This document shows, in pieces, positions 14,669 through 59,417 of a DNA stretch of 64,000 bases. Source of the DNA: Candidatus Aenigmatarchaeota archaeon (GTDB lineage Archaea > Aenigmatarchaeota > Aenigmatarchaeia > GW2011-AR5); contig JAGVVU010000034.1 of NCBI GenBank assembly GCA_018304605.1, forward strand, positions 3,555 through 67,554, read 5' to 3'. Each line of letters starts with the position of its first letter. The first letter of the stretch is position 1. The notes beneath the pieces were generated by a model, which did not search any database, was not told the origin of the DNA, and saw only the letters and a program-made list of their open reading frames with translations. A program made the translations under genes and the position numbers.

Positions 14669-14844
14669 CGTCCCCGGCGCGATTCGAACGCGCGACCCCC
14701 TGCTTTCCCGGACGACGCATTCGAAGAATGCGTCAGTCTATCTCTCAGATATGATGTCATCATCACACAACCCGCCGGCTGTGCTCTGTTCACCTCCATA
14801 CCTGATAGGAGGCAGGTGCTCTATCCAAGCTGAGCTACGAGGAC
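14669..14844 (-). tRNA. tRNA-Arg(CCU) with an intron of about 100 nt in the anticodon loop region
   Basis: Acceptor GTCCTCG/CGGGGAC. D arm GCTC-AGCTTGGATA-GAGC. Anticodon stem CCTGC/GCAGG with loop CTCCTA+A. T arm GCGCG-TTCGAAT-CGCGC. The intron contains the perfect hairpin GACGCATTCTTCGAATGCGTC. Confidence 0.7.
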
Positions 14845-15176
14845 TTACAGTAAAAGTATACGGAAATCGTTAAAAATAACCCAAATCCATAGATTACCAA
14901 TGGAAATCGGGTTCATCGGCGGCTTCATCATTCTTGGCGCCTGGATATACGAGGCCTACCTTTCATGGAAAAAAGGCGAAACGCCCGACATAAAATTTAT
15001 CCTCGCGTATGTCGTAGGACTTTCGTTCTTGACATATTACACATTCCAGATAAAGGATATGCCTCTCCTTTTCTTAAATGGCGCAATACTCTCCCTTACG
15101 CTTCTCGAGCTTGATCTGGCGCTAAGGCAGCGACATAAAAAGAAAAACAAGCGGCGCCAAACCAGAAAGTCGTCGG

Positions 15177-16933
15177 CTAATTTATGAATACCTTCAGCTT
15201 GTCATTCACCAGCGCCCTGAGAACTTCCTTGCCGACCTCGCTGTCCTTTGCCACGCGTATCTGGCTGTTCTTGCCAAGAGTAGCTGAGAACAGATATTCG
15301 TCCTCGACGTAGAAATTCACTATCTTGCCCGGGCGCGCCTCCAGTGTGAAGACGATGTAGGCGCCCGTTTCCTCTTTCTCGAAATCAACCGCATTGCCCA
15401 AAGTGGCTACCTTTGGGGAAATCTCTATGCTTATTCCAAGCTTCTCCTCGAGCGCTTTTACGGTTTCTCCGCCCTTTCCTATGATTCTCGGTATCACGTC
15501 ATTTTCGACCCTGACTATCGCCTTGTTATCGCCGACTATCTCCACGACTGCCGAGTGGTCGAAGCGCCGCAGCTCAGCAAGAAGCTGCTTTTTCGCCAAT
15601 TTCACCAGCCCAGATTCTTTCTTGCTGGCATCTTTCACTGGGATTATCACGTTCTCCTCGCCGTACGTGTAAATTTCGTATTCCAGAGCCGCTGTTTCAA
15701 AGTTCTTCACCTCAACCACCGGACGAGCCAGGTCTGCTTCTGTCATTCCAGTCGGGGTCCGGACAGTCAGCGAAAGCATGTAAACCTTTTCAACACGCCC
15801 CTCTTTTATGTAGATTATCGTATCGATTATGTGCGGAATCATCCCAAGTTCCACGCGGCCGATGAATCGCTGTATGGCATCTATCGGCTCTGTCGCGTGC
15901 ACCACGCCTATCATGCCTATGCCTGCCAGCCGCATGTCGGCGAATATCTCGAAGTCGTTTGTCTTCCTGACTTCGTCGTATATGGTATAATCAGGCCTTA
16001 CAAGCAGTAGCATGTCAGCAGTGTTTTCGAAAGATCCCTTGAGCTTTGCGTACTGCGTTATCTCAGGCTTTACCTGAAGGTCGCGCGGAGATTCCATGGT
16101 CTTGACTATCTTTCCTCCGGACTCCAGAAATTCGGCTATGCTCGCGGCGAAAGTACTCTTGCCAGAGCCGGGTGGACCTGCTATAAGAACGCCGTCGACC
16201 TTTTTAGACAGCCTTTCCTTAAGCTTGTCAGAGAGCTTGTACTCGTCAAGCGTCAGCTTCGTTATTGGCCTGACCACGGTTATCTCTATCCCGTCCGAAA
16301 ATGGCGGACGTGCAATCGCGATTCTCATGTCGCCAAGCTGGACAACGCTGGCCGTATAGCCGCTGACTTCCACAAATGAGTCATCCTCGTAGCGCGCGGC
16401 ATCCATTATCTCCTTTATTATTGCCTCCAGCTGCTCGGGCGTGGTGCGCTCCTCAGATATCCTGACAAGGTCAAAACGGCCCGGCATTCCTCGTTTTGCC
16501 ACTGGCATTGTGCCTTCCTTGAGATGCAGGCTCATGGTGTCCGGAGTCATCATACCGGACAATGCCGTCGTTTTTTTCTTCTCATACGGCTTGAAGTATC
16601 GCGACTTGACGCCCTCGGCCTCCGCGAACATGTACTGGACATAATCCGACGTGTATATGGTAGCGGGCCGCTCTTTGCAAGCTGGATCTCCTCATATGTC
16701 TGGCGACGCCCGCTTTTCGTCATCGTCACGTTGCTGTAGAGCGTGCGCAGCTTCTTCATCTCCTCAAGACCCTTGAAGCCGATTTCCCGGCCCTTGGATG
16801 CCTGAGCACGCAATTCCTCAACAGCAAATTCCGGAATGATTATTTCCGCTTCTGCTATTTCCCCTTTCTCTATCAGATCAGTAAGTATGCCCGATATGAG
16901 CACGCTCGTGTCTGGTACTATTTTTTCTTTCAT
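15177..16933 (-). CDS. PIN-domain / PilT-type ATPase / KH-domain protein (COG1855 family), interrupted by a frameshift near 16640-16690
   Basis: N-terminal PIN motifs (IVPDTSVLI) are in ORF 16550-16933. The PIN C-terminal motif ATIYTSDYVQ, the Walker A motif GPPGSGKST and the KH domain are in ORF 15177-16631, in another frame. Confidence 0.65.
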
Positions 16934-17144
16934 TTAATTCACCTTTTTTATCAAGATATTCGTTTTTGTAACAACATGCATCGTTACAAATGCCTTGCCT
17001 TTATTCTAACATCATCTTTTTCCAGAAGAAGTAAGAGTCAAGATTATTATGACAGGTGTTTATTTAAACCTTCTGAAAAGCCGGCTGCAGGATTGCTCCC
17101 CGACGTAAGCAGGACCAACGCGCAACGCCCGGTTTTCATTTTTT

Positions 17145-17253
17145 GTCAAGCGAAAGCGAACTCCTCTACTACAATACCACATTCCCTGCAATACTTGCTG
17201 TCATGCGCCGGATCGTACGATATCTTGTCCGAGCCGCATTCCATACAGTTCAT
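17145..17253 (-). CDS. Small C4 zinc-ribbon protein (36 aa)
   Basis: MNCMECGSDKISYDPAHDSKYCRECG. RBS GAGGTG 7 nt upstream. Confidence 0.4.
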
Positions 17254-17369
17254 ATACCACACCTCTGACAAGAAATAGGCTTTTATTATAAAGGCTTTTG
17301 CTGATTCGCAAAATATTTTTCAGAAAGAAGAAATGCTTTTAACCTGAGTCACTAAAAACCTGTGAACTG

Positions 17370-18638
17370 TCACTCAGAACCGATTATGTCTTTTATCCTC
17401 TTGATATTCCTTATCTCTACCTCCTTCTCATTGCCGCTTGCCATGTTCCTCAGCTTGACGACCCCGCTCTTCGCTTCCTTCTCACCGACAACGATTGAGT
17501 ATTTTATCCCCTTTGAATTGACATATTCCAGCTGCTTGCCCAGACTTCTTGCAGATACATCGTATTCTGCATTTATGCCGAGCTCCCTGAGCTGCTTTGC
17601 TATTTCCACGCAAAATGCTTTTGAGCCTTCGTCCACGTTTGACAGATAAACTGCAACCTTCGTCTTCCCGAAATCAACCTGTATGAAGCCCATCAGCCTG
17701 TCGACGCCGAGCGATATGCCTGTTGCCGGTGTTGGTTTGCCGCCGAACGCCTCTATCATCCTGTCGTAACGACCGCCTGCTGTAATTGTCAGCTCGCTGC
17801 CGCGCTGCATAATCTCGAAGATGTTTCCAGTGTAGTATTCCAGGCCGCGCACCATGCTCATGTCCACCTCGGCAGAAAACCCGAATTTTTCAAGTCCCTT
17901 AAGCAAAACATAAAGCTCATCTATGCCCTCCTTGCCACTTTCGTCTTTTATGAGTGGAGAGGCTTTTTTCACGTCGGTTATTTTCACGAACCTCATTATT
18001 TCCTTTACCTTATCCTCGCTGACGCCCTTGCCTTTTAGCTCCTCCACGACTTCCTTCTCCCCTATCTTGTTCAGCTTGTCCACCGTCCTCATCACGCTGA
18101 CCGAATCAGCTCCCAGCGAATCCAAAAAAGAGCTTATTATCTTCCTGTTGTTTATGCGAACGTAGAAATTTGACAGTCCAATCTTTTGCAAAACGCTGCA
18201 CGCGCACGCGACCACTTCCACGTCGGCTTCTGGACCTGCTGCGCCTACTATATCTACGTCAGCCTGGCAGAATTCCCTGTAACGCCCAGCGCCCGGGCGG
18301 TCGTACCGCCAGACCGTGCCGAGCTGATAGCGGCGGAATGGCTTCGGCAGGTTAGGATTGCTGGCGGCAACGCGACAAAGAGGTACTGTGAAGTCAAAAC
18401 GCAGGCCAAGCTCCCTGTCACTTTTGTCTTTGAAATAGTAAATCTCATCCTTTATCGCTTCCCCGCTTTTTGCAGTCAATAGCGCGAAGTCTTCAAATGC
18501 AGGCGTATCGAGCGGGTCGAATCCCCAGCTCTCGAACACGGCACGCGCCGTGTCTAAAATAAACTGGCGCTTTATCATGTCCTCAGGCAGAAGATCTCTC
18601 GTGCCGCGTGGCGGCTGGAATTGTGCCATATCTATCAC
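17370..18638 (-). CDS. hisS: Histidyl-tRNA synthetase
   Basis: Class II motifs: PRGTRDLLP, LRFDFTVP, GGRYD. Confidence 0.9.
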   Translation of the reverse strand: MIDMAQFQPPRGTRDLLPEDMIKRQFILDTARAVFESWGFDPLDTPAFEDFALLTAKSGEAIKDEIYYFKDKSDRELGLRFDFTVPLCRVAASNPNLPKPFRRYQLGTVWRYDRPGAGRYREFCQADVDIVGAAGPEADVEVVACACSVLQKIGLSNFYVRINNRKIISSFLDSLGADSVSVMRTVDKLNKIGEKEVVEELKGKGVSEDKVKEIMRFVKITDVKKASPLIKDESGKEGIDELYVLLKGLEKFGFSAEVDMSMVRGLEYYTGNIFEIMQRGSELTITAGGRYDRMIEAFGGKPTPATGISLGVDRLMGFIQVDFGKTKVAVYLSNVDEGSKAFCVEIAKQLRELGINAEYDVSARSLGKQLEYVNSKGIKYSIVVGEKEAKSGVVKLRNMASGNEKEVEIRNIKRIKDIIGSE

Positions 18639-18763
18639 TTATATCTTTGTTCTTTCCGATTTAAATCGGCAGGGGCTTCTTCTGCGGCCTTGCACTCTTT
18701 CTCTCATTCGCCGTCATTTCATAGAACCACCTCATGCAACCACCTAAAAATATTCACTAAATT

Positions 18764-18960
18764 CCATCCTCTTCACACCTCTTTGTGAAAATTATTTTCC
18801 CTTCAGAAACAAACAGAGCTAGCTCTAGCTTGTCGGCTATGTTAATGCCTAGCGTCTTGCGTATCTCAACAGGCAATGATATGCGCCCTTTCTCGTCGAC
18901 AGAAACAGTGAATTTTACGGAGCGATCTCTAGATCTTGTGAACTAATCCACCAGTTTTAC
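18764..18960 (-). pseudogene. AbrB/SpoVT-type DNA-binding domain ORF lacking an in-frame start (possibly frameshifted)
   Basis: VKFTVSVDEKGRISLPVEIRKTLGI matches the swapped-hairpin AbrB fold. The nearest ATG (MECKTGGLVHKI) is in another frame. Confidence 0.3.
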
Positions 18961-19026
18961 ACTCCATGTTAATCACAACAATCATAGAAATATCAAGCCA
19001 TTTAAAGTTTAGGTGGGAGGAGGATG

Positions 19027-19437
19027 TTACTCAACTGGCTGCAGACCAAGAGCGCCTATGCCGGCTTTGCCGAGATTTACGATGTGTCCTTCCCTGTGCT
19101 CGTATACAAGCTTCATGAACGCGACTACATCAGGCGGCAGCTCGACGTCCTGAAGGGCTCCTATCTGAATTGGCTCTGTTATGTTGGGATTATCGTAGTG
19201 CGGCATATCCAAGTGCACCTTGGTACGAGAGATGTAGACCCTGATTTCACCTTTTACAGGACTCTCTCTCAGGGCCATCCAGGATGTCTCTGCTTCCATA
19301 AAATATGTGCCATTGTACAGTCCTCTCTCTTTGTAGTGGACTTCGCATATGACTCTATCGGGCCTCTCATCAAATAACGTGTAGTACAATCCGTTCTCAT
19401 CAAAATGTTTCAGGCTTTTCCTGTTTATCTCCGCCAT
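19027..19437 (-). CDS. Hypothetical protein
   Basis: ORF 19027-19539, trimmed to the internal Met (MAEINRKS) to avoid overlapping the parvulin gene. Confidence 0.4.
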   Translation of the reverse strand: MAEINRKSLKHFDENGLYYTLFDERPDRVICEVHYKERGLYNGTYFMEAETSWMALRESPVKGEIRVYISRTKVHLDMPHYDNPNITEPIQIGALQDVELPPDVVAFMKLVYEHREGHIVNLGKAGIGALGLQPVE

Positions 19438-19512
19438 CACAGGAATCTTTGCCCTTACCATACAGCAAAGATAAACCAAATCTTTATAAGAGCTTGCAAA
19501 AATTATGAATTC

Positions 19513-19788
19513 ATGACAAACCAAGTCCACTGCGCGCACATCCTTGTCAAGACAGAACAGGAAGCAAAAGATGTTTTAGAAGACCTAATAGACGGCACTA
19601 GCTTTGCATCTGTGGCACAGCAGAAATCACTGTGCCCGTCGCGCAAGCAGGGCGGCGACCTGGGAAGGTTCGGGCGCGGCCAGATGGTCAAGCCATTCGA
19701 AACGGCTGCATTCGCCCTTGAGAAAGGGCAGACGTCGCAACCGGTCAAAACGGAATTCGGCTGGCACATTATCAAGCGGCTGGGATGA
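19513..19788 (+). CDS. Parvulin-type peptidyl-prolyl cis-trans isomerase (PpiC/PinA-like, 92 aa)
   Basis: HILVKTEQEAKDVLEDL ... GGDLGRFGRGQMVKPFE ... FGWHIIKRL. Confidence 0.75.
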   Translation: MTNQVHCAHILVKTEQEAKDVLEDLIDGTSFASVAQQKSLCPSRKQGGDLGRFGRGQMVKPFETAAFALEKGQTSQPVKTEFGWHIIKRLG

Positions 19789-20297
19789 TAATGAATTTTT
19801 TAATAAGGCAGATAGAAAAAAGGGATTTCTCAAGGATTCATGAGATTGCACTAAAAGGCTGGCTCTTTGCATATGGATATCTGCCAAAAGAATCCCTGAA
19901 GGGCTTGGTAGACGAATACTATTCTGATGAGAGCCTTACTTTTTCCCTTAATCGCGTGGAAAGCGGCACGGATTTCTTCGCAGTCGCTGAGCTTAATGGC
20001 AAAATAATCGGCTTCTGCCATGTAACTGAAGAAAACCAAGAAGGCGCGGCAGAATTATTGCGACTTTACCTGGATTTAGATTACATGGGTCATGGAATAG
20101 CCAAACAGTTATTGGTGAACTGCGAAAACTTCCTTCGGGACAAAAGCTGCAGGAAATATAACACGTTCTGCAACAAGCACAACAAAAAGGGCATTGAATT
20201 CTATCTAAGGAATAAATTCCTCCATATAGAAAACAAAGACAAGGAAGACGAATTCAAAAACGGGAAAGTTCTGTGGCATCTTGAGAAGACGCTTTAA
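19785..20297 (+). CDS. GNAT family N-acetyltransferase
   Basis: GFCHV...LYLDLDYMGHGIAKQLL acetyltransferase core. Confidence 0.65.
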   Translation: MIMNFLIRQIEKRDFSRIHEIALKGWLFAYGYLPKESLKGLVDEYYSDESLTFSLNRVESGTDFFAVAELNGKIIGFCHVTEENQEGAAELLRLYLDLDYMGHGIAKQLLVNCENFLRDKSCRKYNTFCNKHNKKGIEFYLRNKFLHIENKDKEDEFKNGKVLWHLEKTL

Positions 20298-20462
20298 TTA
20301 CTCTTTTTCTATAATGACTTTGGATTTCTCTATTTTCGCTACGAGTTTGTCTTTGACATCAAGAGGGAAAGAACTGTCTTCAACTAATGATTTAGGTATA
20401 TAGATTATCCAGCCACCACGATCTTCTCTATAGTTCGCTTTGATGTTAACTTTTGAAGTCAT
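20298..20462 (-). CDS. Small hypothetical protein (54 aa)
   Basis: Clean ATG-to-TAA frame, divergent from the LAGLIDADG gene. Confidence 0.3.
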   Translation of the reverse strand: MTSKVNIKANYREDRGGWIIYIPKSLVEDSSFPLDVKDKLVAKIEKSKVIIEKE

Positions 20463-20520
20463 ATCTATTCTTTAGAATACAAAACTATTTATATTTAGCT
20501 TAACAAATGTTATAACATAA

Positions 20521-21312
20521 GTGATAACTATGGAGAGTGTGTACTTAGGAATTAGAAAGAATAAATTGAAGGCTGTAAAACTTCAAGAGAATAATAAATA
20601 TTTAGGACTTGCTTCTCTTACAGAAGGTTTCAAAAATTCAAGTGTTAGGTTACCAACAAAACTGACTCCGGAATTGGGGGAAGAAATCGGCATTCATATA
20701 GGTGACGGACATTTATCATCTAATCGTTACAGGTACAAACTTTTCGGTAACATAGACGAATCTGAATATTACGAGAATTTTGTGGCTGGATTGTACCAAA
20801 GGCTATACAACATAAACGTGAGATTAGAAAAAAGAGAAAGAGATGGTAATATCATAGGGTTTGAATTTTGTTCTAAACCCGTATGGATTTTCAAAACAAA
20901 AACCATCGGATTGATAACAGGTAGAAAAGACAATGTGTCAGTTCCCATCCTAATTCTAAACTCTAACCCGGCAATTTTGCGGGCATTCGTAAGAGGCTTA
21001 TTCGATACAGACGGGAATCTTTATTTCCAAAGCAGATATGGCTACAAAAACTACTATCCTCTTATTTCTCTTACATCCAAGTCAAAAGATTTATGCAAGT
21101 CGACATGTGAAATTCTGACAAAACTTGGATTCAAGGCAAATTATTACACAACACGAAATGAGGCAGTTGTCCAATTATATGGATATGAAAATCTTTTGAA
21201 ATATGCAAGTGAAATCGGGTGGCACAATACTAAACAGCTCAATAGATTCCTTGATTGGAAAAAACGCTTTCCGAATCTTGTGGAAAAGAAAAGGGCAGCT
21301 ATCGGGATTTGA
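20521..21312 (+). CDS. LAGLIDADG-family (double-motif) homing-endonuclease-like protein
   Basis: Motifs IGIHIGDGHL and LRAFVRGLFDTDGNL. Paralogue of the gene at 57008-57757. Its last 19 nt are antisense to the 3' end of tRNA-His. Confidence 0.7.
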   Translation: MITMESVYLGIRKNKLKAVKLQENNKYLGLASLTEGFKNSSVRLPTKLTPELGEEIGIHIGDGHLSSNRYRYKLFGNIDESEYYENFVAGLYQRLYNINVRLEKRERDGNIIGFEFCSKPVWIFKTKTIGLITGRKDNVSVPILILNSNPAILRAFVRGLFDTDGNLYFQSRYGYKNYYPLISLTSKSKDLCKSTCEILTKLGFKANYYTTRNEAVVQLYGYENLLKYASEIGWHNTKQLNRFLDWKKRFPNLVEKKRAAIGI

Positions 21313-21386
21313 ACCCGACCCGAAAGCTTTCTGTCAGCATAAGCTGGCCACAGGCTTGCATGCTACCAAGCTACACTATAGCTGCC
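21294..21386 (-). tRNA. tRNA-His(GUG) with encoded G-1 and an intron of about 19 nt after position 37
   Basis: G-1 opposite discriminator C73. Acceptor GCAGCTA/TAGCTGC. D arm GTGT-AGCTTGGTA-GCAT. Anticodon loop CTGTGG. T arm TCGGG-TTCAAAT-CCCGA. Confidence 0.7.
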
Positions 21387-21435
21387 ATTTGCCTATAGAG
21401 TGTATAAGAAAACATATTTAATAAAGAAGTGGGCA

Positions 21436-21795: not shown

Positions 21796-22064
21796 AATTC
21801 AATGTTAAGAAAAAAGCTTATAAGTGTCACTAATCAAAATAGGAGACGGTATGGTTCCACAAGGAGCATGCTACATAACTCCCTTGTGAACTATATGTGA
21901 ACCCAGAAAATACGAGAGGGGTTAACAATATGGCAGGCTTTCTAATCATAGCGGATATCCTGAACGGGATTAAGATTAGCCAGTAAACCATAAGCTGTCC
22001 CTGCTTCTTTTCTTTTCCAAGAATTTCCGCGGGGACATACAACTGTAAAACGAGGTGCATAGAA

Positions 22065-22573: not shown

Positions 22574-22616
22574 AAGCCTTTTAACCGCTAACTTCCAAAT
22601 ACCCTTAGGTCTTATT

Positions 22617-26630: not shown

Positions 26631-27253
26631 AAATCAACACCCAAATGATTTAGGTCGTTTCTGAGCTTTTCAGCGCTCTCGAAAAGGATTGTATGAATGC
26701 CAAGTTCTTTTGCAGCAACCAACTTTTCCGGCGTATCATCAATCATGACACATTCATGCGGCTTGGCTTTTGCCATTTCAATGGCTTTTCTATAGATATC
26801 TTTGCCTGATCTTTTTGTCGACTTGGCATTAACTGAATCTATTACAAAATCAAATATTTTGTAATTTCCTTTCTCCAGATGGATCTTTAGGTGAACAGGG
26901 TCTACATCTGTTATCGAAGCAACCGTATAATTTTTCCCTTTCAATTTTATTATTATAGACTCAATATCAGGATTTATTGCGAACATTTCCTCTGCAGTCC
27001 ACATTTCAGCCAGGGTTTTCGTATCGATTCCAAGCTTTGAAGATAGGCGCTGATAATATTCTTCTTCGGCAATGTTTCCAATCCCAAATTCACTCCATAT
27101 ATCATGAAAAATCTTTTGCACATCTTCAATCCTAGAATTCAAAAGGCATGAAACCCTGTTTATCACATAACTTCCGGTCCCCTTTGCATATACGCCGCCA
27201 ATATCGAAGAATACAATTTTTATTGGGCTCATTTTCTCGCCACTATCATGCAA
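26627..27253 (-). CDS. HAD-superfamily hydrolase
   Basis: N-terminal IVFFDIGGV (DxG). C-terminal MIDD motif. Confidence 0.65.
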   Translation of the reverse strand: MHDSGEKMSPIKIVFFDIGGVYAKGTGSYVINRVSCLLNSRIEDVQKIFHDIWSEFGIGNIAEEEYYQRLSSKLGIDTKTLAEMWTAEEMFAINPDIESIIIKLKGKNYTVASITDVDPVHLKIHLEKGNYKIFDFVIDSVNAKSTKRSGKDIYRKAIEMAKAKPHECVMIDDTPEKLVAAKELGIHTILFESAEKLRNDLNHLGVDF

Positions 27254-27888
27254 TGCTTTTCCTCATGAGGTTCCAGGTCTATCATCTGGACAATCTCAAA
27301 TCCGGCTCTTTCCAGCCTGTTCTTTTCCTGCTCGTAAATCTGCTGCGGCCTTTTCGTTACGTCGATGCTTTGCGACTTTATCGCTATCATCAAACAGCCG
27401 CCTTTCTTCAGGAATTCCGTGGAATTCCTGATTGCCATATCGGTTTCTTGGGGGTCGGCTATATCACAGAATACTACATCGCATTCCTCTATCCACTTAT
27501 AGACCTCAGGCTTGCGGGCGTCAGCCATCATAGCAGCTATGTTTTTCCTCTGGTTCGCAAGCTCAACCAGGTTCCTAAGGACCCGCTCAGCGAACTCGAT
27601 GCCATAAGCGAATCCGTCCTTTCCTATGATATCACTTACATGGGAAATTGTCGTGCCTGTGGATGCCCCCAGATACAGGACTACGCTTCCTGGCTTGATT
27701 GGCATCTCTTTCAGCCCGTTGACTATGGCAGCACCAAGCTTGCTCCTCCTTGGATCCCACTCTCGAAGCTGCTTTGCGCCTTGCTTTTCATCAATCAGCT
27801 TCTCGCCATAAACCTTTTTGCCGGGGGTTAAATTAACCGTATAAACCCTGTTTCCGTCTTTGAATACGCCCGGGAAAATTTCCTTCAT
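27229..27888 (-). CDS. flpA: Fibrillarin-like rRNA/tRNA 2'-O-methyltransferase
   Basis: VLYLGASTGTTISHVSDI SAM-binding motif. Operon with Nop5. Confidence 0.9.
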   Translation of the reverse strand: MKEIFPGVFKDGNRVYTVNLTPGKKVYGEKLIDEKQGAKQLREWDPRRSKLGAAIVNGLKEMPIKPGSVVLYLGASTGTTISHVSDIIGKDGFAYGIEFAERVLRNLVELANQRKNIAAMMADARKPEVYKWIEECDVVFCDIADPQETDMAIRNSTEFLKKGGCLMIAIKSQSIDVTKRPQQIYEQEKNRLERAGFEIVQMIDLEPHEEKHCMIVARK

Positions 27889-28853
27889 CCAGACACCCTC
27901 TTTATCTCGTCTTCCATTTCCTTTCTGAGCTTCTCCGCATCGTCCCTGCCGGAATAATAATCTATGCGTGCAGCGAGCATCAGCTTTGACGATATTATCC
28001 TGGCTATTTTTCCCTTCTGCTCGTTCGTCGCGTTCTGTATCAAAGGCGAGTTGTAAATTATCCCGTACTTGGGGCTCTTGCCCTTCTGGTGGAGATGGCG
28101 AAACAATGCTTTCTCCGCGCCCAGAAGCTGTATTGTTGATGCCGGCATCCTTGCTATCTTTTCCATGGAACCTGCCGCAGCGATAAGGCGCGCCCCCAAA
28201 AGCGGATCGACCAAGGCAGAAAAGTTAGGCGCGACATCCCTCATTGCAGACGCCACGTATCTCTCGAGGTTCTTCTTCTGCTTTTCCATATCATCTATGG
28301 CTTTTGCAAAATCAGCCAGGGCTTTTTCATCCTCCTCATTCAGGTCTACGCCTGTGCTGGATTTGAAGCCGGGAATATTCCCGCGTCTGCCGTATTTCAG
28401 CACTGTGTCCTTCACGTTGACGTTCTTCATCTCCGGATAATGCAGCGAGAACCATTCGTAAAGGCGCTCAAGAAACACGTTAATCGCCCTCGTCAGATCG
28501 TCAAGGGACCTGACCGACTGGACGATAAGCCTGTCACGGCTTATCGCACCCATGAGGCTCCTTTTTGAGAGGGCAATAGAGAAGCCGGAGAGGAACTCAT
28601 TCAGCTCCTGATCGTCCTTTACGAATCCCAGGCTCTTTGCATAATCGCGAAAGCTCTTCCTTAGCAGCGCATAAGCACGCGGCGATTCTTCCGGCTTATA
28701 GCCAGAAAGGCTGGAAACAAAATCCTTGTCAAGTTCTTTAGCAAGGAATTTTTCTAATGCAACCTTCGGATTCCAGAGCTTGTAGTAAAGCAAGCTTCCG
28801 TCCTCTCCGAAGGCAAAAAGCCCCGCAGGGCTCCTTGCGATTAGCGCTCTCAT
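27885..28853 (-). CDS. nop5: Nop5/Nop56/58 C/D-box sRNP protein
   Basis: NOP domain (LGARLIAAAGSMEKIARMPASTIQLLGAEKALF). Adjacent to fibrillarin. Confidence 0.85.
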   Translation of the reverse strand: MRALIARSPAGLFAFGEDGSLLYYKLWNPKVALEKFLAKELDKDFVSSLSGYKPEESPRAYALLRKSFRDYAKSLGFVKDDQELNEFLSGFSIALSKRSLMGAISRDRLIVQSVRSLDDLTRAINVFLERLYEWFSLHYPEMKNVNVKDTVLKYGRRGNIPGFKSSTGVDLNEEDEKALADFAKAIDDMEKQKKNLERYVASAMRDVAPNFSALVDPLLGARLIAAAGSMEKIARMPASTIQLLGAEKALFRHLHQKGKSPKYGIIYNSPLIQNATNEQKGKIARIISSKLMLAARIDYYSGRDDAEKLRKEMEDEIKRVSG

Positions 28854-29117: not shown

Positions 29118-29120
29118 AGC

Positions 29121-36748: not shown

Positions 36749-36897
36749 TGGGCTCGGGCGGATTCGAACCGCCGACCTTTGCCGTATCTTCAACCAATCC
36801 TTTGCGTTCTTTCCGTTAACGCTTTCTTTAAAGAAGGGGTTAGTGAAGGCAACGTCATCTCGTGCCTGATTTTCAGGTACCACTAGACTACAAGCCC
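36749..36897 (-). tRNA. tRNA gene with about 76 nt of intronic insertion (D-loop hairpin insertion CCTGAAAATCAGG plus a further insertion), isotype unresolved
   Basis: Acceptor GGGCTTG/CGAGCCC with discriminator A. D arm GTCT-AGTGGTA. T arm GGCGG-TTCGAAT-CCGCC. Variable loop AGGTC. Followed by TTTT. Confidence 0.55.
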
Positions 36898-39670: not shown

Positions 39671-39806
39671 GGGCCGGTAGCTTAGCTTGGTAGAGCATCT
39701 GTCTTATATGACGTGCTTTGATAATAAACAAAATCAAAGCATTTGGCGTGACATCGTCATTGTCTAAGCCAGCAGAAGGTCATGAGTTCAAATCTCATTC
39801 GGCCCA
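39671..39806 (+). tRNA. tRNA with anticodon UAU (Ile, AUA-reading) if spliced at the canonical 37/38 site; intron of about 63 nt
   Basis: Acceptor GGGCCGG/TCGGCCC with discriminator A. D arm GCTT-AGCTTGGTA-GAGC. Anticodon stem TCTGT/GCAGA with loop CTTATA|intron|A. T arm ATGAG-TTCAAAT-CTCAT. The intron has an 8-bp hairpin GCTTTGAT/ATCAAAGC. Confidence 0.6.
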
Positions 39807-52111: not shown

Positions 52112-52112
52112 C

Positions 52113-52451: not shown

Positions 52452-52457
52452 AGTTTC

Positions 52458-52757: not shown

Positions 52758-52911
52758 GAACTTTGATAACCCTATAATTTATCAAAGTTCATAATAAGGA
52801 CTTTGAACAAAAATATATATTTATTATTCAAAGCCCTCTATTGAACTACTTCTCCGTACTGAAGCAGAATGAACGAATCACTCTTTATATGTTCAAATTT
52901 CACCTATATTT

Positions 52912-53406
52912 ATGATAAAAAATATCAAGATACCGGAGGAGCGGCTTCCTGTGCTGATCGGGAAAAATGGAATGACAAAAAGGTCCATACAAAGAAAGAC
53001 AAAAACGAAAATCGACGCAAGCGAGGAAGAAGTAATAATAGAAGGCGAATCCATCGGCGTCCTGGACGCGGAGAGTATAATAAAAGCCATCGGGCGCGGC
53101 TTCTCTCCCGTGCATGCGGAGCTGCTGCTGGACGAGGACAATACATTCCTGATAATAGAGCTTCCCAAGGGTGAAAAGACATTGAAAAGATTGAAATCAA
53201 GGCTGATAGGTACCAGAGGCAAGTCGCGGCGCAATATAGAGAGGCTCACAGGCACCTATATTTCCGTTTACGGCAAGACTGTTTCGGTGATTGGCAAATA
53301 CAGCAATGTCAACATGGCCGAGCAGGCTGTACAGAAGATTATAAAAGGTATACCACACAGATTTGTATACGAATTTCTGGAGGCACGGCAGGATGAGCGA
53401 GCATAA
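52912..53406 (+). CDS. Double-KH-domain RNA-binding protein (Dim2/Pno1-like)
   Basis: VLIGKNGMTKRSIQRKT and LIGTRGKSRRNIERLTG GxxG loops. Confidence 0.7.
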   Translation: MIKNIKIPEERLPVLIGKNGMTKRSIQRKTKTKIDASEEEVIIEGESIGVLDAESIIKAIGRGFSPVHAELLLDEDNTFLIIELPKGEKTLKRLKSRLIGTRGKSRRNIERLTGTYISVYGKTVSVIGKYSNVNMAEQAVQKIIKGIPHRFVYEFLEARQDERA

Positions 53407-55020
53407 AAAAGCGGAAGACTTCGCGAAGGAGCAGAAGGAAATCAGCGTGAGCGAATTCTTTGAGAAAAACAAGCACCTTCTTGGATTTGACAACCCTACA
53501 AAGTCGCTGCTCATGGCAGTGAAGGAAGCTGTTGACAATTCTCTGGATGCCGCAGAGGAAGCAGGAATTCTTCCGGACATAACAGTCAAGATAAAGCAGG
53601 TGGACGAGAACACTTACATAGTTTCCGTGGCAGACAACGGACCGGGAATCGTCAGGGAGAACGTTCCCCGCGTATTCGGAAAGCTTCTGTATGGGAGCAA
53701 GTTCCACAGGCTGCTTCAGGGCAGAGGCCAGCAAGGCATCGGCATAAGCAGCGTGACACTCTATGCCCAGCTCACCACAGGGGTGCCGACAAAAGTCTGG
53801 TCGAAGGTGGAGAGCAAGAAAAAGACTTACTATTGTGAATTGCACCTGAATACTGCAAAGAACGAGCCCGACGTAATCAAGGAAGAGGAAATAGACAAGG
53901 AGGTCGTTGGTGAGCATGGCGTCAAGGTCGAGATGGAGATACACGGGCGTTACAGAAAAACCGTAGAGGATTACCTAAAGCAGACTTCTATCTCAAATCC
54001 GTTTGCCAAAATCGCATACACGTCTCCGGATGGAACGAAAACGGTTTTCCCGCGCTCACTCAATGATCTGCCAAAACCTCCTAAGAGGATGAAACCGCAT
54101 CCGCACGGCATGGAATTCGGAATTCTGCAACGCCTGCTCCAGAACACAAGCTCGCGTACACTGCTCTCTTTCCTGACGAACGAATTCTCTTCTGTAGGCA
54201 GTCAGAGCGGAAAGGAAATATGCAAACTGGCAAAAATTCCGGAAGATACAAAGCCGCAGGAACTTGACAGGATTGCGATAGAAAAGCTCATCCCCCGACG
54301 GACTGCTTGTCACCCATCGGTTCAGCGGAACTTGAGAAAAGCCTGAAGAAAGAATACCCGAACGCGGAATTCGTGACCTCAATAACAAGAGATCCTGAAG
54401 TTTACAGGGGGTTCCCGTTCCTCATAGAGGTCGGGATTGTTTATGGTTTGGGCGATGAAGTGCAAGCAAAAAGAAAAAAGGAAAACGATGATGACAAAAA
54501 GGAAGACGTGATAGAATTGATAAGATTCGCGAACCGGGTGCCACTGCTCTACCAGCAGAGCGCCTGCGCGCTGACAGAGGCGGTCAAGGATGTGGACTGG
54601 AGGCGCTACAATCTCTCGCAATCAGGCAGCAACCTTCCGTCGGGTCCTATGAAGCTGGTGATACACATCTGCTCCGTCTGGGTCCCGTTCATGTCCGAAA
54701 GCAAGGAGGCCGTTGCTGCATACCCGGAGATAATAAAAGAAGCGAAGCTTGCAATACAGGACGCTGGCCGCAAGCTCTCATCGTACCTGAGCGGAAAGCG
54801 CCGCGCGGGAGAGCAAAAACGCAGGATGCAGATGTTCGACCGCTACGCCGGCGAGGTGTCCGACGCACTGGCAATACTGACAGGAAAGAACGACAAGGAA
54901 ATAGAAAAGAAGCTCAGGGCACTCGTAGAGAGCAGGGTGCACATCAAAGAAGAGTTTGTTGACGAATCCGTAGAAATGTCGGATGCCAAGAAAGGGATAA
55001 AATCTGAAAAGAAACCATAA
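53393..55020 (+). CDS. top6B: DNA topoisomerase VI subunit B, interrupted by a frameshift in a C5 run near 54290-54300
   Basis: GHKL ATPase motifs (EAVDNSLDA, DNGPGI, GRGQQGIGIS) are in ORF 53363-54346. The transducer domain is in ORF 54307-55020. The frames rejoin if one C is added or removed in atcccccgacgg. Confidence 0.8.
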
Positions 55021-55047
55021 AAGAAAACAAATGAAGTGATAATAATG

Positions 55048-56124
55048 GCAAAAGAAGTCAAGAAAGAGCTGCAAAAACTCGGGGACAAGCTGCTACAGGA
55101 CATAGAAAAGAAGGAAAACCCGAGCATAGAAATACCTATACGGGCATTATCCAACGTTGTCTTCGACAAGAAACTGGGTCAGCTTACCCTGGGGGACAAG
55201 ACTGCGAAAAGATATTACTTCAACGTGGCGCACGCAAAGAAATTCATGCAGACCGCGATGGTTGCTTCATTCTCAAAGCAGCTGATAGACCAGAACATAC
55301 ATGCGAGCATCAGAGACATGTTCTACAACCTGAAGCGCACGCTCCCCGACAGCAATGAAAACACTTTTGACGAGCAATCAGAAAGCGATCCGATAATAGT
55401 CGATCTGGAAGTCGCAATAGATGTGCTTCGCGAGCAGCTTCACCTTACTACGGACAGAAAGGGGATAGTCGCCGGCAATGTCATCATCCAGGACAGGGGT
55501 GACAATATAGACTGGTCAAAGCTTGGCAGCGGCGGATGGTCTATCCCGAGTACGGTGGATGAAATCACGTTCAAGAAAGTCGATGCGGAATTTGTCCTGG
55601 TCGTAGAGAAGAACGCAGGATTTGAGCGCCTGCATGAGGACAAGTTCTGGCAGAAGCACAAATGCATACTCGTCGGAACCGGAGGCCAGCCATCCCGCGG
55701 CACAAGACTTCTGATACAGAGGCTGAATCAGGAGCACAAGCTGCCTGTTTACGTATTTTGCGACGCGGATGCATACGGCGCATATATTTATTCCGTAATA
55801 AAATCCGGCTCCATCAGCCTTGCGCATGTCTCCGACCGCATCTCAACGCCAAGCGCGAAATTCATCGGCTTGACCATAAGCGATGTGTACGAGTATGACC
55901 TGAAGAAGGCAACCATAAAGGCGAAAGACGTCGACATAAAGCGCGCGAAGGAGATGCTGAATTATGAATGGTTCAAGAAGAACCCGAGATGGCAGAAAGA
56001 GCTGAACCTCATGATAGAAAAGGGCATAAAAGCGGAAATAGAGGCTCTCTCCCACAAGGGCCTGAAGTTCATGTCGGAAACCTACCTGCCGGACAAGCTG
56101 AAGAAGAAAGATTTCCTAGACTAG
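55048..56124 (+). CDS. top6A: DNA topoisomerase VI subunit A (Spo11 homologue)
   Basis: Winged-helix plus Toprim. YVFCDADAYG acidic Toprim motif. Confidence 0.9.
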   Translation, partial: AKEVKKELQKLGDKLLQDIEKKENPSIEIPIRALSNVVFDKKLGQLTLGDKTAKRYYFNVAHAKKFMQTAMVASFSKQLIDQNIHASIRDMFYNLKRTLPDSNENTFDEQSESDPIIVDLEVAIDVLREQLHLTTDRKGIVAGNVIIQDRGDNIDWSKLGSGGWSIPSTVDEITFKKVDAEFVLVVEKNAGFERLHEDKFWQKHKCILVGTGGQPSRGTRLLIQRLNQEHKLPVYVFCDADAYGAYIYSVIKSGSISLAHVSDRISTPSAKFIGLTISDVYEYDLKKATIKAKDVDIKRAKEMLNYEWFKKNPRWQKELNLMIEKGIKAEIEALSHKGLKFMSETYLPDKLKKKDFLD

Positions 56125-56729
56125 GCTTTAATCATCTTTACCTTACCGTTCTTAACAAAAGCCGCACCGCCTTCTCTTATTTTCACGTATTTGTATCCGG
56201 TCTTTTTCAAGTCTTCCATAACTTTTGTATATGGCTTGGAGTATTTCTTATTTCCGAAATGAGGCAAAGGTACAAAACCAACAAGATTAAGTCCCTTGAA
56301 TGACTTGAGCTTTGCTTTGGAAGGGTCGTCCAGAAATCTTATGGAACGTATATTAGTACCTGCAACAGCCGCTCCTGCGCTCGAGCCGACATAAATCTTG
56401 CCTCCTCTAAGAAGTTTCTTAATAATCTTATCGAAACCAGATTCCCTCATTTTCTGCAAGAGGTAGAATGTATTTCCGCCAGCAACATAAATTATGTCAA
56501 ATTCGTTGAGTTTTTTTAACAAATTACTCTTTTTCATCCCTTTCAGGTCAACTGTGACCAACCTAAATCCTTTCTTTGTCAGAATTTTTCTATCTGCCCT
56601 GATCCACCACTTATCTTTGTAAGGGTCAGCTGCTGTCGGTATAAAGGCGAGCTTCAGTTTCGTCTTTGACTTTTGAATTGCTTTATCTACCAAACTAGAA
56701 GCATCAGAAGCCAGCAAGATATCGGTCAT
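56121..56729 (-). CDS. Peptidase E / S51-family dipeptidase
   Basis: IYVAGGNTFYLL and GSSAGAAVAG motifs. Confidence 0.65.
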   Translation of the reverse strand: MTDILLASDASSLVDKAIQKSKTKLKLAFIPTAADPYKDKWWIRADRKILTKKGFRLVTVDLKGMKKSNLLKKLNEFDIIYVAGGNTFYLLQKMRESGFDKIIKKLLRGGKIYVGSSAGAAVAGTNIRSIRFLDDPSKAKLKSFKGLNLVGFVPLPHFGNKKYSKPYTKVMEDLKKTGYKYVKIREGGAAFVKNGKVKMIKA

Positions 56730-56784
56730 AATCCTAACATGACGATTTCCTTTTAAATATTCCGCAAAAAGTTATTAGAGTCAT

Positions 56785-56899
56785 GCCCTGGTAGCTCAGC
56801 AGGTAAGAAGCTAGGCTTCTCTATAAAGAGCGCTTGAGATTTTAGGAATCGGCGAAGCTGTTAACCAAGAGGTCCGCGGTTCGAGCCCGCGCCGGGGCG
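56785..56899 (+). tRNA. tRNA-Asn(GUU) with two short non-canonical introns (about 22 nt in the D-loop, about 20 nt at position 30/31)
   Basis: 73-nt mature tRNA plus 42 nt. Acceptor GCCCTGG/CCGGGGC. D arm GCTC-AGCAGGTA-[AGAAGCTAGGCTTCTCTATAAA]-GAGC. Anticodon stem CTTG[intron]G/CCAAG with loop CTGTTAA. Variable loop AGGTC. T arm CGCGG-TTCGAGC-CCGCG. Confidence 0.6.
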
Positions 56900-57042
56900 C
56901 AAGGTAGCTCAGCTCGGGAGAGCACATAGTGTGAGGAAAACCTCATATTAGCTTAAACGGCTGAAGTTTAGGCAGGAACCGTACTGTAAAACACTGGTTT
57001 TATAGGTTTAAGCTGTCGAGGGTTCAAATCCCTCTCTTCCCA
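56900..57042 (+). tRNA. tRNA-like gene with about 70 nt of insertions; acceptor pairing and anticodon unresolved
   Basis: Canonical D arm GCTC-AGCTCGGGA-GAGC. Stem CTTAA/TTAAG flanked by a 9-bp helix AGCTTAAAC/GTTTAAGCT. Variable loop CTGTC. T arm GAGGG-TTCAAAT-CCCTC. The 5' CGCAAGG does not pair cleanly with the 3' TCTTCCC. Confidence 0.4.
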
Positions 57043-57757
57043 CTGCAATTTCAACTTTCCTTATATGTTTAGGATTATGAAATCCAATTTTTCCCATCCA
57101 GTTCTTTGCGTTTTTTCTTCCATTGATATAAATTCTACTTCCTTTAGAAGAGAAACCTCGATTGTCATTAACGATGGTGTCATATTCTGTATACATTGAG
57201 AACCCCATTTCTTTTAGAATTAATTCTAATTGTTCAACAAGTTTACGACTCTTCTGTTTTACTGAAATTACAGGATAATTATGTCCTTGTTTTTTTAATG
57301 ACACGGAACCATCAGTGTCGAAAAGTCCTCGAATGAATGGAATTATGAATTTTTTATTTTTGAGAATAAATTTGGGTATTTCTATGTTATCTTTTGGTCC
57401 AATATTGAATCCTATATCTTTTAGGAAATAAAATAATCCTTTTGATCTTGTTATAATTCGGATTGTATTTTGACCCTTCAGCTTTACGGGTTTTAATTTT
57501 ATATTGAATACCCTGAAAATTAAAGGCACTATAAAATTATCTATATACTCTTTGTCGTCAGTAAAGGAGCACGTTATAGAAATAGAGTATTCTGATGCCG
57601 TGCCGCCTTTAAACCGGTATTTGTTAATGCTTCCGTCACCTGTCATAATGCCTAAAAATTCTGCAAGTTCTTCAGATAAAACTACAGGCAATTGTAGACC
57701 TTTTCTTTTATCTCCGTAAGTAATGATTGATTTCATGTGATCACTTATGGACTTCAA
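57008..57757 (-). CDS. LAGLIDADG-family (double-motif) homing-endonuclease-like protein
   Basis: LAEFLGIMTGDGSI and IPFIRGLFDTDGSV. The C-terminal 12 codons are antisense to the T-arm of the tRNA-like gene. Confidence 0.7.
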   Translation of the reverse strand: MKSISDHMKSIITYGDKRKGLQLPVVLSEELAEFLGIMTGDGSINKYRFKGGTASEYSISITCSFTDDKEYIDNFIVPLIFRVFNIKLKPVKLKGQNTIRIITRSKGLFYFLKDIGFNIGPKDNIEIPKFILKNKKFIIPFIRGLFDTDGSVSLKKQGHNYPVISVKQKSRKLVEQLELILKEMGFSMYTEYDTIVNDNRGFSSKGSRIYINGRKNAKNWMGKIGFHNPKHIRKVEIAVGREGFEPSTA

Positions 57758-57813
57758 TACTCTATACTATAGAGTTCTAAACTATATAAAGATTTGTGTT
57801 CTTCTAGATAAAT

Positions 57814-58020
57814 ATGCCGAAGAAAAGGGGGTTTGGTCCGGATAAATACAAAATAGAAATACTCAATGTTCTTAGGAAATACCCATTCATGTCTACGTCA
57901 GAAATTTGCGATAATCTCAATATGGGTTATGAGACTGGGTTGAAGTATATTGAGCAGTTATCAAAAGAAGGTAAAATAAAGCACCGTAAAATAGGAAACC
58001 GGCAATTTTGGTACATCTAG
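57814..58020 (+). CDS. Small winged-helix DNA-binding protein
   Basis: 68 aa. ILNVLRKYPFMSTSEICDNLNMGYETGLKYIEQL. Confidence 0.5.
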   Translation: MPKKRGFGPDKYKIEILNVLRKYPFMSTSEICDNLNMGYETGLKYIEQLSKEGKIKHRKIGNRQFWYI

Positions 58021-58062
58021 TATTTCTCATCTTTTTATAAAAGCCGGGAAAATATACTACAC

Positions 58063-58635
58063 ATGGGTTACAGCTATGCACCCCAAAGCAGCGGAGGCTT
58101 GCAACTCGGGAAACGAGGCAAGCACCTCGCGATAGCCGCCGTAATAATCCTCTTTGTCGGGACATTCTATTTTGTTGGCAATACAATGACAGGCTATGTC
58201 ACTTACAGCGAGAGCCTTGAACAGCAATTAAATGAGACGCATAACAAGTTTCTCGACATGAAGGCACAATACGAAACCTGTGATGCATACCTGGGAAATG
58301 CGAACAGCAACATAGCGTCGCTGAACACCAGCCTGAATGCGTGCAGCACAGACATGTTTTCGCAAAAGCTGGCAGTGACTAGCTGCAATAATGAGAAAGA
58401 ACGGCTAGGCAGGGAAAAATCAGACCTGTCGAATTCCCTTTCATCCTGCAGGAGCGAACAGGTTTCATCCACAGAATCCTACAAGCAACTGGCACGCAAT
58501 TCGGTCAAGGCCATATGCTGCAGCTTCGGGGATGTGCAAAGCGGCTCTGTGCGCAACTGGAACATCACCAACAACAGTATAGTATGCACTGGCAATTACA
58601 CCATCAACTGCACCACCGGGGAATCGAACTATTGA
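58063..58635 (+). CDS. Membrane-anchored Cys-rich extracellular protein
   Basis: N-terminal TM helix. Coiled-coil. Ten Cys in the C-terminal half. Confidence 0.45.
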   Translation: MGYSYAPQSSGGLQLGKRGKHLAIAAVIILFVGTFYFVGNTMTGYVTYSESLEQQLNETHNKFLDMKAQYETCDAYLGNANSNIASLNTSLNACSTDMFSQKLAVTSCNNEKERLGREKSDLSNSLSSCRSEQVSSTESYKQLARNSVKAICCSFGDVQSGSVRNWNITNNSIVCTGNYTINCTTGESNY

Positions 58636-58793
58636 AGTTGGCTGGCTTTTTAAAGTTAAGTTAAAAACAGATAAAAGAAGTGGACAAAGGGCACCAGACT
58701 GTCGACTAGGCGCTGAAAGCGTCATGTTTGTTTGATGCTCGTCTGACTTACATAATTCAAAATGGTTCAGATCAGTCGACTTCTGTGATTTTT

Positions 58794-59417
58794 ATGCCAA
58801 AAAAACACAAGCAAAATCAAGACCAAAAAATAGAACAATCAGAGGACTTCGAGAGGAGGGAATATGTCGAGCCTGAGCCAGTAAAAGTCGTAGTTGACAC
58901 GCTCCTTGCAGAAGACAAGGTAATCGCTGTCGAGAATCGTGAGCATATCTATGAACCGGGCTATTACGGCAAGGATCTTGGCGAGAGGCTCGAGCTGGCT
59001 TTGGTCGAAGCGGTCCTGCTGCTCAAGCGCGGCAGGATAAAGGTGTCCTCCCTGGGAAAACAGCTGTCATTCAAGGAACTTTACGACCATGCATGCTCCA
59101 TGGACAAGAGATTCCCTCATAAATACAGGGTATATGAAGACCTGCGTGAGAGAGGGCTGCTGGTAAGGACGGGCTTCAAATTCGGCTGCGATTTTCGCGT
59201 ATATGAAAGAGGGGTACAACTGAAGAAAGGGCCAAAATCGGCAAAGGAACACACGAAATGGATAGTCTTCTCGGTGCCAGAGGACTTCACTATGTCTTTC
59301 GCCGAGCTTTCGAGAAGTGTAAGGTTGGCGCACAACATACGTGCCCGCATGCTCTGGGCTGTTGTTGACAACGAGGCTGATGTGACTTTTTATCAGATCA
59401 CTCGCCACAAACCGTAG
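58794..59417 (+). CDS. endA: tRNA-splicing endonuclease (EndA) catalytic subunit
   Basis: YRVYEDLRERGLLVRTGFKFGCDFRVYE and KEHTKWIVFSVPED...LAHNIRARMLWAVVD catalytic-domain motifs. Start set at the internal Met (MPKKHK). Confidence 0.75.
   Translation: MPKKHKQNQDQKIEQSEDFERREYVEPEPVKVVVDTLLAEDKVIAVENREHIYEPGYYGKDLGERLELALVEAVLLLKRGRIKVSSLGKQLSFKELYDHACSMDKRFPHKYRVYEDLRERGLLVRTGFKFGCDFRVYERGVQLKKGPKSAKEHTKWIVFSVPEDFTMSFAELSRSVRLAHNIRARMLWAVVDNEADVTFYQITRHKP

Follow-up and report, generated by a model that had tools for sequence, protein, structure and literature searches.

Multi-intron tRNAs of Thermoproteales and Crenarchaeota have reportedly been described by Sugahara in 2008 and by Fujishima in 2010. 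The closest described counterparts of the locus presented here are found among the DPANN archaea. Hirata et al. (2012) described a loop in NEQ205, a subunit of the tRNA-splicing endonuclease (EndA) of Nanoarchaeum equitans, that holds the catalytic His together with K93, K94, K96 and R97, and proposed that it offers another way to reach broad specificity, as a second route (PMC3488258). Kaneta et al. (2018) renamed this loop L3 and reported L3-bearing α4 EndAs in several DPANN lineages, associated with more disrupted tRNA genes (PMC5829648). The present analysis concerns a stretch of 64,000 nucleotides (nt) from contig JAGVVU010000034.1 (assembly GCA_018304605.1), called the window hereafter, which carries interrupted tRNA genes together with a gene for an L3-bearing EndA. 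We consider it highly probable that introns of the protein-spliced kind heavily disrupt these tRNA genes, and that the introns are cut by this EndA, an enzyme of the α4 type equipped with L3.

The window comes from the chromosome of a DPANN archaeon of the Aenigmatarchaeota, known from groundwater metagenomes, whose genome has a GC content of about 46%. The nearest homologues of its EndA and of its isoleucyl-tRNA synthetase are both annotated as Candidatus Aenigmatarchaeota. Compared with the named relative, archaeon GW2011_AR5 (GCA_000806115.1; AR5 in what follows), these proteins are 86% and 83% identical, respectively. Other loci from related genomes or assemblies are referred to by L-numbers. 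A scan of a genome collection with the neighbouring amino-acid kinase as query contributed only two useful loci, and a metagenome scan with a neighbouring PP-loop protein only two close relatives.

Spliced parses combined with scoring of bulge-helix-bulge (BHB) motifs give a total of seven tRNA genes with 12 introns, or 476 nt of intron sequence, in the window (Table 1). No uninterrupted tRNA gene was found there by ARAGORN (default and intron mode), Rfam or a scan for T-arms. An earlier note on this DNA had held that every recognised tRNA is interrupted, and this applies to all seven genes. The five genes it listed are all present at the places it gave, with tRNA-Ser(UGA) and tRNA-Phe(GAA) missing from its list. 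Its intron sizes also agree to within 1 nt with those measured: about 100 nt for Arg(CCU) (101 nt), about 19 nt for His(GUG) (19 nt), about 63 nt for Ile(UAU) (62 nt) and about 76 nt of insertions, including one in the D-loop, for an unnamed tRNA that proves to be Val(CAC) (77 nt). The insertions it placed in the D-loop and at 30/31 of Asn(GUU) were likewise recovered. Four genes (Arg, His, Ile and Phe) carry an intron at the canonical position 37/38. Non-canonical introns occur at 20/21 (Val, Asn), 27/28 and 42/43 (Phe), 30/31 (Asn) and 36/37 (Val), and in the variable arm and at 59/60 (Ser). The window is a dense example, all seven genes being interrupted by up to three introns each; a relative has up to four.

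Several lines of evidence identify these insertions as introns. Their removal in silico restores clean cloverleaves with a 7-nt anticodon loop. Six of the seven products (Ser, Arg, His, Val, Ile and Asn) are recognised by ARAGORN as canonical tRNAs, and the spliced anticodon arm of the seventh, tRNA-Phe (CACGGCTGAAGACCGTG, i.e., CACGG-CTGAAGA-CCGTG), equals the contiguous arm of its L004 orthologue. The junctions were also inspected for BHB motifs, a check proposed in the earlier note, under the rule that cutting takes place behind nucleotide 2 of each 3-nt bulge and that the two bulges flank a helix of four base pairs. The strict hBHBh' form is seen at four of the 12 junction pairs, namely those of His, Ile, Asn 30/31 and the variable arm of Ser. 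At the Ile junction, for instance, all four pairs of the central helix form between an outer helix of five and an inner helix of four. The remaining eight junction pairs show relaxed motifs, which are of the HBh' kind at Val 36/37, HBh'-like at Val 20/21 and Asn 20/21, and hBH at Ser 59/60. At Arg 37/38, which is also relaxed, a long helix within the intron has the 5' splice site at its base, the 3' bulge (AAA, cut after the second A) abuts the anticodon stem, and three out of four central pairs form. The BHB score of each chosen junction ranks in the top 0.02-2.3% among all junction pairs of its own precursor, a rank that is partly circular as the score itself partly guided the choice of junctions.

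Relatives provide a further comparison. For 9 of the 12 junctions, an intron-free allele equal to the predicted splice product exists in at least one relative. The spliced positions 16-74 of tRNA-Asn (59 nt), spanning both its 20/21 and 30/31 junctions, are 100% identical to contiguous DNA of AR5. The same genome is contiguous across Val 36/37, with TTCACAC as loop, and has an intron-free tRNA-His with the anticodon loop CTGTGGA of the window. The anticodon arm of tRNA-Phe is uninterrupted in L004 at the positions of all three window introns (27/28, 37/38 and 42/43), and the variable arm of tRNA-Ser is a contiguous 16 nt in L024 and L034. As this evidence is independent of the BHB score, the circularity mentioned above leaves the comparative support untouched. 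In addition, three independent assemblies (L012-L014) that are 99.8% identical to the window across 15 kb contain the same introns, so the window sequence is reliable at the introns. Contigs nearly identical to the window stem from the aquifer data sets ERZ27254845, ERZ28564302 and ERZ28563803. Altogether, these data support the view that we are dealing with tRNA introns of the archaeal BHB type, several of them at non-canonical positions or in relaxed motifs.

A number of observations weigh against this view or limit its reach. Relaxed motifs form the majority (8 out of 12), with three or four of four central pairs and one flanking helix only (the outer or the inner), and the ranks of the junction scores are not fully independent of the way the junctions were chosen. 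For Val 20/21, Arg 37/38 and Ile 37/38, all orthologues bear introns, leaving no intron-free comparator. Splicing in vivo is something we infer from the gene sequences. Finally, the 5' acceptor strand of tRNA-Phe in the window starts at position 4, reading GCGC followed directly by AAGG, with G1-G3 missing. The latter defect is a variant of this one sequence, attributable to the strain or the assembly, and not a feature of the system, because L012-L014 carry CGGG at this place (GCGC-CGGG-AAGG) and an intact acceptor, forming a perfect GGGAAGG/TCTTCCC stem. Three other explanations for the missing G1-G3 were considered and dropped in view of this CGGG: a 3/4 intron enclosing tRNA-Asn, an alternative 3' acceptor strand CTTTGCG further downstream (57103-57109), and 5' repair by a Thg1-like enzyme. 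In total, the window differs from L012-L014 by three indels (Table 1). One of them, of 31 nt, cuts the gene for subunit B of topoisomerase VI (Topo VI-B) into two open reading frames (ORFs). The deletions in Topo VI-B and tRNA-Phe are likely assembly errors or mark a defective variant.

The positions of the introns change quickly between relatives, and differ among genomes whose EndA proteins are 79-89% identical. The Asn introns at 20/21 and 30/31 are common to the window and L004; AR5 has one D-loop intron in this gene, at 15/16, and L005 two longer introns at other positions. In tRNA-Phe, AR5 carries an intron at 27/28 plus insertions in the T-arm, L004 an intron at 59/60 only, and L005 four introns, namely at 37/38, 42/43 and two further positions. 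The Val gene of AR5 is without the 36/37 intron, but its D-loop is enlarged by some 140 nt and its T-loop holds an intron, and the Ser gene of L024 has a 37/38 intron instead of the one in the variable arm. Other introns are retained. The Ser 59/60 intron is common to the window, L024 and L034, the Ile 37/38 intron is kept in all genomes compared (62 nt in AR5, about 37 nt in L008), and the Arg 37/38 intron is kept with a conserved core (96 nt in AR5, about 61 nt in GCA_964373255.1). Such quick turnover among close relatives amounts to a natural experiment on the gain, loss and movement of BHB introns.

Some further features were observed around these genes. The Ser 59/60 intron of the window and its orthologue in a relative (L024, L034) have the same start, ACCGAGGAA, and a palindromic hairpin, GGAAGGATATCCTTCC, which is placed differently within the intron of the relative, in which the neighbouring PP-loop protein is 68% identical. 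This neighbour, encoded about 0.9 kb from tRNA-Ser, is an ATPase of the PP-loop type that ends in a zinc ribbon at its C-terminus; it may be an enzyme of tRNA thiolation similar to TtcA/Ncs6. The window also has two ORFs for LAGLIDADG_3 endonucleases, paralogues with 32% identity to each other. Each converges on a tRNA gene (His and Phe), with an overlap of 20-35 nt at the 3' end of that gene. The copy next to tRNA-Phe also occurs in L005, L006 and L012-L014 and is missing from L004, and AR5 has an uncalled remnant or ORF at this place. A target-site duplication of the tRNA 3' ends flanking these ORFs was looked for and not found.

We envisage the following processing route. After transcription of the tRNA genes, the precursors would fold so that the exon-intron boundaries come to lie two nucleotides into a bulge beside a helix of four base pairs, in a BHB or in its hBH or HBh' variants. 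EndA, probably as a homotetramer, would then cut both boundaries. The L3 loop beside the catalytic His is likely what allows an enzyme with a single kind of subunit to act on relaxed motifs away from the anticodon loop, where it would compensate for a missing bulge or helix. The exons would subsequently be joined by an RNA ligase, RtcB-type in other archaea, encoded outside the window; no RtcB-type ligase was found by Pfam scans of 43 ORFs of the window. The end products would be the seven tRNAs in their canonical form.

The gene singled out by the earlier note as the candidate splicing enzyme indeed encodes both Pfam domains of EndA, and it also encodes a loop that the literature links to broad specificity. 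In the protein, a Lys-rich N-terminal extension of about 35-50 amino acids (aa) precedes the N-terminal domain, which is followed by the C-terminal, catalytic one; the lengths of the homologues do not support a longer frame starting at TTG. Its extra length is accounted for by the Lys-rich extension and a 6-aa L3 insert, not by a further unit, and the single N+C unit falls within the range of roughly 170-210 aa of α4-type EndAs. The best match in PDB is 1A79, the α4 enzyme of Methanocaldococcus jannaschii (E = 2.5e-33). Residues 59-160 align to that enzyme with single-residue gaps only, so that an insert of the CSL or ASL type is absent. With one unit of 207 aa, the protein has neither the CSL of (αβ)2 enzymes (K44 in A. 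pernix) nor the ASL of ε2 enzymes (K161 in ARMAN-2). Between the catalytic Tyr and His lies a 6-residue insertion relative to M. jannaschii, the basic L3-type loop GVQLKKGPKSAKEH (KKGPKSAKEH), which aligns gap-free with the NEQ205 loop GVIPKKGKRSEREH (NEQ205 residues ~90-98). It is a basic insertion just before and including the catalytic His, which is how this loop is defined in PMC3488258. The L10 loop, which serves dimer-dimer contact in α4 enzymes, is full-length and acidic as in those enzymes (VDNEADV, aligned with VDADGDI of M. jannaschii), and NEQ205, an α subunit of an (αβ)2 enzyme, has a 2-residue deletion there. These features support a real, full-length splicing endonuclease, α4-like with L3 and most likely a homotetramer, for which a broad specificity is predicted. 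The earlier note had invoked a relaxed-specificity enzyme as in Thermoproteales and ARMAN lineages. The relaxed motifs and the broad-specificity loop agree with this, but the class is α4-like with L3 instead of the (αβ)2 type of Thermoproteales or the ε2 type of ARMAN-1/2.

It may be asked whether this EndA supplies just the catalytic half of a heteromeric enzyme of the (αβ)2 type, with a structural partner encoded elsewhere in the genome. N. equitans, also a DPANN archaeon and with the same L3 loop, does use an (αβ)2 enzyme (PMC6379350). Moreover, a sister Aenigmatarchaeota clade (L018-L022, e.g., GCA_039091605.1 and GCA_018920245.1) has two tandem EndA genes at the site corresponding to that of the window EndA (locus positions 3001-4066), which counts against a homotetramer. 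Copy 1 (172 aa) is without the catalytic His and most of L3, and copy 2 (180 aa) has both. Nonetheless, we regard a heteromeric enzyme as unlikely in the clade of the window. The syntenic site (Topo VI-A ... EndA - CBS protein - class II aminoacyl-tRNA synthetase) holds one EndA gene in AR5, L004, L005 and L023, and the window EndA combines the catalytic Tyr and His with a full acidic L10, features that (αβ)2 enzymes split between subunits. A search of the 64 kb of the window and of 14 selected loci yielded no further EndA-like ORF, a scope that itself limits the weight of this result. Several DPANN EndAs were furthermore classed as α4 with L3 by Kaneta et al. (2018; PMC5829648). The tandem pair of the sister clade looks like a recent transition from α4 to (αβ)2, probably through tandem duplication within the phylum. 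The proximity of GenBank accessions was tried as a test of α/β-like co-occurrence and gave ambiguous results; direct look-ups of the loci were used instead. At least 21 contigs carry an EndA protein identical to that of the window.

The active site of the α4-like enzyme departs from the textbook, and this also qualifies the outcome of the domain classification that the earlier note had called for. The catalytic Tyr and His, equivalent to Y115 and H125 of M. jannaschii, are kept. The position of K156, however, is Ala in all 121 sequences aligned (the window EndA and 120 close homologues), a finding that speaks against a conventional α4 assignment, as the Tyr/His/Lys triad is not complete in one subunit (window 59250-59340, residues ~153-183). 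Textbook catalysis is therefore not to be assumed for this EndA. The function of the lost Lys is presumably kept by another basic residue. The residue directly following the Ala is Arg or Lys in the same 121 sequences and is not conserved in more distant relatives (N, T, I or L). Another observation is that G-P-K, five residues before the catalytic His, occurs in all 179 regex-matched units with L3 and without K156, and that 8 out of 10 regex-matched units retaining K156 have short loops. This correlation between the L3 Lys and the loss of K156 is confounded by shared ancestry. One tentative possibility, which we would not favour over its alternatives, is that the role of K156 has moved to the invariant Lys of G-P-K in L3, in which case the loop that broadens specificity would also be part of the active site. 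If true, the tRNA-splicing endonucleases would include a variant form of catalytic architecture. The relocated Lys may serve in catalysis or in substrate binding.

The intron of tRNA-Arg(CCU) is conserved in a way that raises the question of a second function. It is closed by a helix whose sequence varies between species, around a core, GGAGGTGAACAGA, that is invariant in three species (those of the window, AR5 and GCA_964373255.1). GATGA recurs 3' of a variable hairpin in the same three. The loci compared were 14705-14805 of the window, 3180-3275 of L015 and 4455-4515 of L016. We think that the core may be a kink-turn (K-turn) or L7Ae site and not a canonical C/D guide. It is quite improbable that the intron encodes a box C/D guide RNA like the tRNA-Trp intron of Euryarchaeota, its length and conservation reflecting a role as methylation guide besides that of splicing substrate. 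The intron does contain GUGAUGAUGA and two CUGA elements, GGAGG is complementary to CCUCC of the anticodon loop, the invariant core and the recurring GATGA would suit such an RNA, and the window encodes the box C/D ribonucleoprotein machinery in adjacent fibrillarin and Nop5 genes. Yet Rfam gives no match to a C/D family in 14705-14805 at E values up to 10, the order and spacing of the boxes do not yield C-12 nt-D'/C'-12 nt-D, and the putative guide regions pair with each other and not with a tRNA target. By inspection of the sequence, the N+5 rule does not point to a paired nucleotide, and the element resembles a single K-turn-like internal loop more. A box C/D small RNA was hence rejected for want of Rfam support and a complete box layout, which leaves a conserved, possibly K-turn-like core.

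That the interrupted genes are decaying pseudogenes, or that the insertions are retained in the RNA and the cloverleaves are an artefact of junction fitting, is extremely implausible: the truncated tRNA-Phe and sequence defects such as the split Topo VI-B gene would fit decay, but exons are conserved up to 100% while introns vary in position, length and sequence, uninterrupted tRNA genes are absent from the window, the predicted junctions coincide with contiguous alleles of relatives, the 5' end of tRNA-Phe is intact in near-identical assemblies, and a complete, conserved EndA gene is present.

Genes of this type are easily overlooked. They were traced here with a combination of ARAGORN (default and intron mode), Rfam, manual parsing, a BHB scanner and the T-arm scan. 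At its gathering threshold, Rfam found two tRNAs in the window. The only call of ARAGORN in default mode was a 'tRNA-Pro', which is really the His gene mis-parsed; its intron mode reported four tRNAs, two with a wrong identity. The calls Ser(gga), Gln(ctg) and, in default mode, Pro(tgg) are mis-parses because the introns are non-canonical; the genes concerned were reassigned as Arg(CCU), Asn(GUU) and His(GUG). Rfam matched tRNA-Ile(UAU) with 54.2 bits. A weak Rfam tRNA match followed by manual parsing led to tRNA-Ser(UGA), the spliced product of which ARAGORN recognises as a tRNA-Ser(tga) of 87 nt, and tRNA-Phe, directly downstream of tRNA-Asn, was located by the T-arm scan. Upstream of tRNA-Asn, at a distance of 25-30 nt, there is a TATA-like element rich in A and T, and T-runs are present 3' of most of the tRNA genes. 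Since standard finders miss or misname most such genes, the tRNA complements of metagenome-assembled genomes of this kind will be under-called.

Table 1. Features of the window, with their positions in the 64,000-nt stretch (indels are given relative to assemblies L012-L014)
Feature	Positions	Strand	Details
tRNA-Ser(UGA)	1160-1349	-	introns: variable-arm loop, 32 nt (1263-1294); T-loop 59/60, 72 nt (1174-1245)
PP-loop ATPase with zinc ribbon	2234-3121	+	PF01171 and PF16503
tRNA-Arg(CCU)	14669-14844	-	intron: 37/38, 101 nt (14705-14805)
LAGLIDADG_3 ORF near tRNA-His	20521-21312	+	
tRNA-His(GUG)	21294-21386	-	G-1 encoded; intron: 37/38, 19 nt (21329-21347)
Fibrillarin and Nop5 genes	27229-28853	-	adjacent
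tRNA-Val(CAC)	36749-36897	-	introns: D-loop 20/21, 20 nt (36859-36878); anticodon loop 36/37, 57 nt (36786-36842)
tRNA-Ile(UAU)	39671-39806	+	intron: 37/38, 62 nt (39709-39770)
Topo VI-B ORFs	53363-54346 and 54307-55020		parts of one gene cut by indel 1
Indel 1	54291/54292		31-nt deletion in Topo VI-B gene
tRNA-Asn(GUU)	56785-56899	+	introns: D-loop 20/21, 22 nt (56805-56826); anticodon stem 30/31, 20 nt (56837-56856)
Indel 2	56900/56901		4-nt deletion (CGGG); tRNA-Phe G1-G3 lost
tRNA-Phe(GAA)	56901-57042	+	introns: 27/28, 31 nt (56926-56956); 37/38, 11 nt (56967-56977); 42/43, 29 nt (56983-57011)
LAGLIDADG_3 ORF near tRNA-Phe	57008-57757	-	
EndA, tRNA-splicing endonuclease	58794-59417	+	207 aa; PF02778 and PF01974, once each
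Indel 3	61458		3-nt insertion

The anticodon UAU of tRNA-Ile is encoded in the genome, as expected for AUA decoding that is independent of TiaS, and is conserved in AR5 and L008. The earlier note had called it uncommon in archaea, which is borne out by its occurrence in 2 out of 167 archaeal genomes (PMC6000648). It has nonetheless already been documented in all three lineages of ARMAN, in N. equitans and in Korarchaeum. The ARMAN archaea lack both tiaS and tRNA-Ile(CAU), and the pre-tRNA-Ile(UAU) of ARMAN-2 has a strict 37/38 intron.

Several described systems have one or more of the properties of this locus. ARMAN-2 (Ca. Micrarchaeum; Fujishima et al. 2011, PMC3239211; Hirata et al. 2012, PMC3488258), also a DPANN archaeon and with intron-rich tRNAs, has the strict hBHBh' motif at 37/38 of tRNA-Ile(UAU), a relaxed hBH intron at 59/60 and a loop at the L3 position in common with the window. 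Its enzyme, however, is a three-unit ε2 homodimer of 390 aa that achieves broad specificity via ASL (L2) and K161, whereas the window EndA is a one-unit protein of 207 aa that aligns to the M. jannaschii enzyme without any insert in the N-terminal region of L1 and L2. The (αβ)2 EndA of N. equitans (NEQ205/NEQ261; PDB 3IEY) has the L3 that aligns gap-free, and its C-terminal domain matches with E = 5e-23. NEQ205 requires a separate structural β subunit, has a shortened L10 and keeps the canonical catalytic Lys (RKK). The window EndA differs from it in its full acidic L10 and in having RAR at the site of the catalytic Lys. With the Thermoproteales and other Crenarchaeota, the locus has in common multiple introns per tRNA (20/21, 30/31, 59/60), relaxed BHB motifs and rapid gain and loss of introns. 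The enzyme of those archaea is an (αβ)2 heterotetramer with the CSL (L1) loop and Lys44 (Hirata et al. 2011, PMC3241643), and the hosts are hyperthermophilic members of the TACK group, compared with a genome of about 46% GC and a single-unit EndA with L3 in our case.

The resemblance is greatest to the DPANN class of Kaneta et al. (2018). Both (PMC5829648) have a single-unit EndA nearest to the euryarchaeal α4 enzymes, a Nanoarchaeum-type basic loop including the catalytic His, many non-canonical and multiple tRNA introns, and a DPANN host. The description there is at the level of a survey, and Aenigmarchaeota are named only in the expansion of the DPANN acronym. The intron map, the turnover and the change from Lys to Ala are described here and, as far as the available text of that paper shows, not there. 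New in detail may be the map of every junction, the fast turnover of intron positions, the Lys-to-Ala change in the active site and the tandem duplication in the sister clade. In this locus, a one-gene, L3-bearing endonuclease with an altered catalytic triad adjoins its own predicted substrates, and the lineage is suited to tests of which features of EndA set its substrate range and of how α4 becomes (αβ)2. The locus belongs to the known DPANN class of α4 EndA with L3 and disrupted tRNAs and is not a new kind of system; since this class has already been reported at survey level in DPANN archaea, the window provides a well-resolved further example of it.

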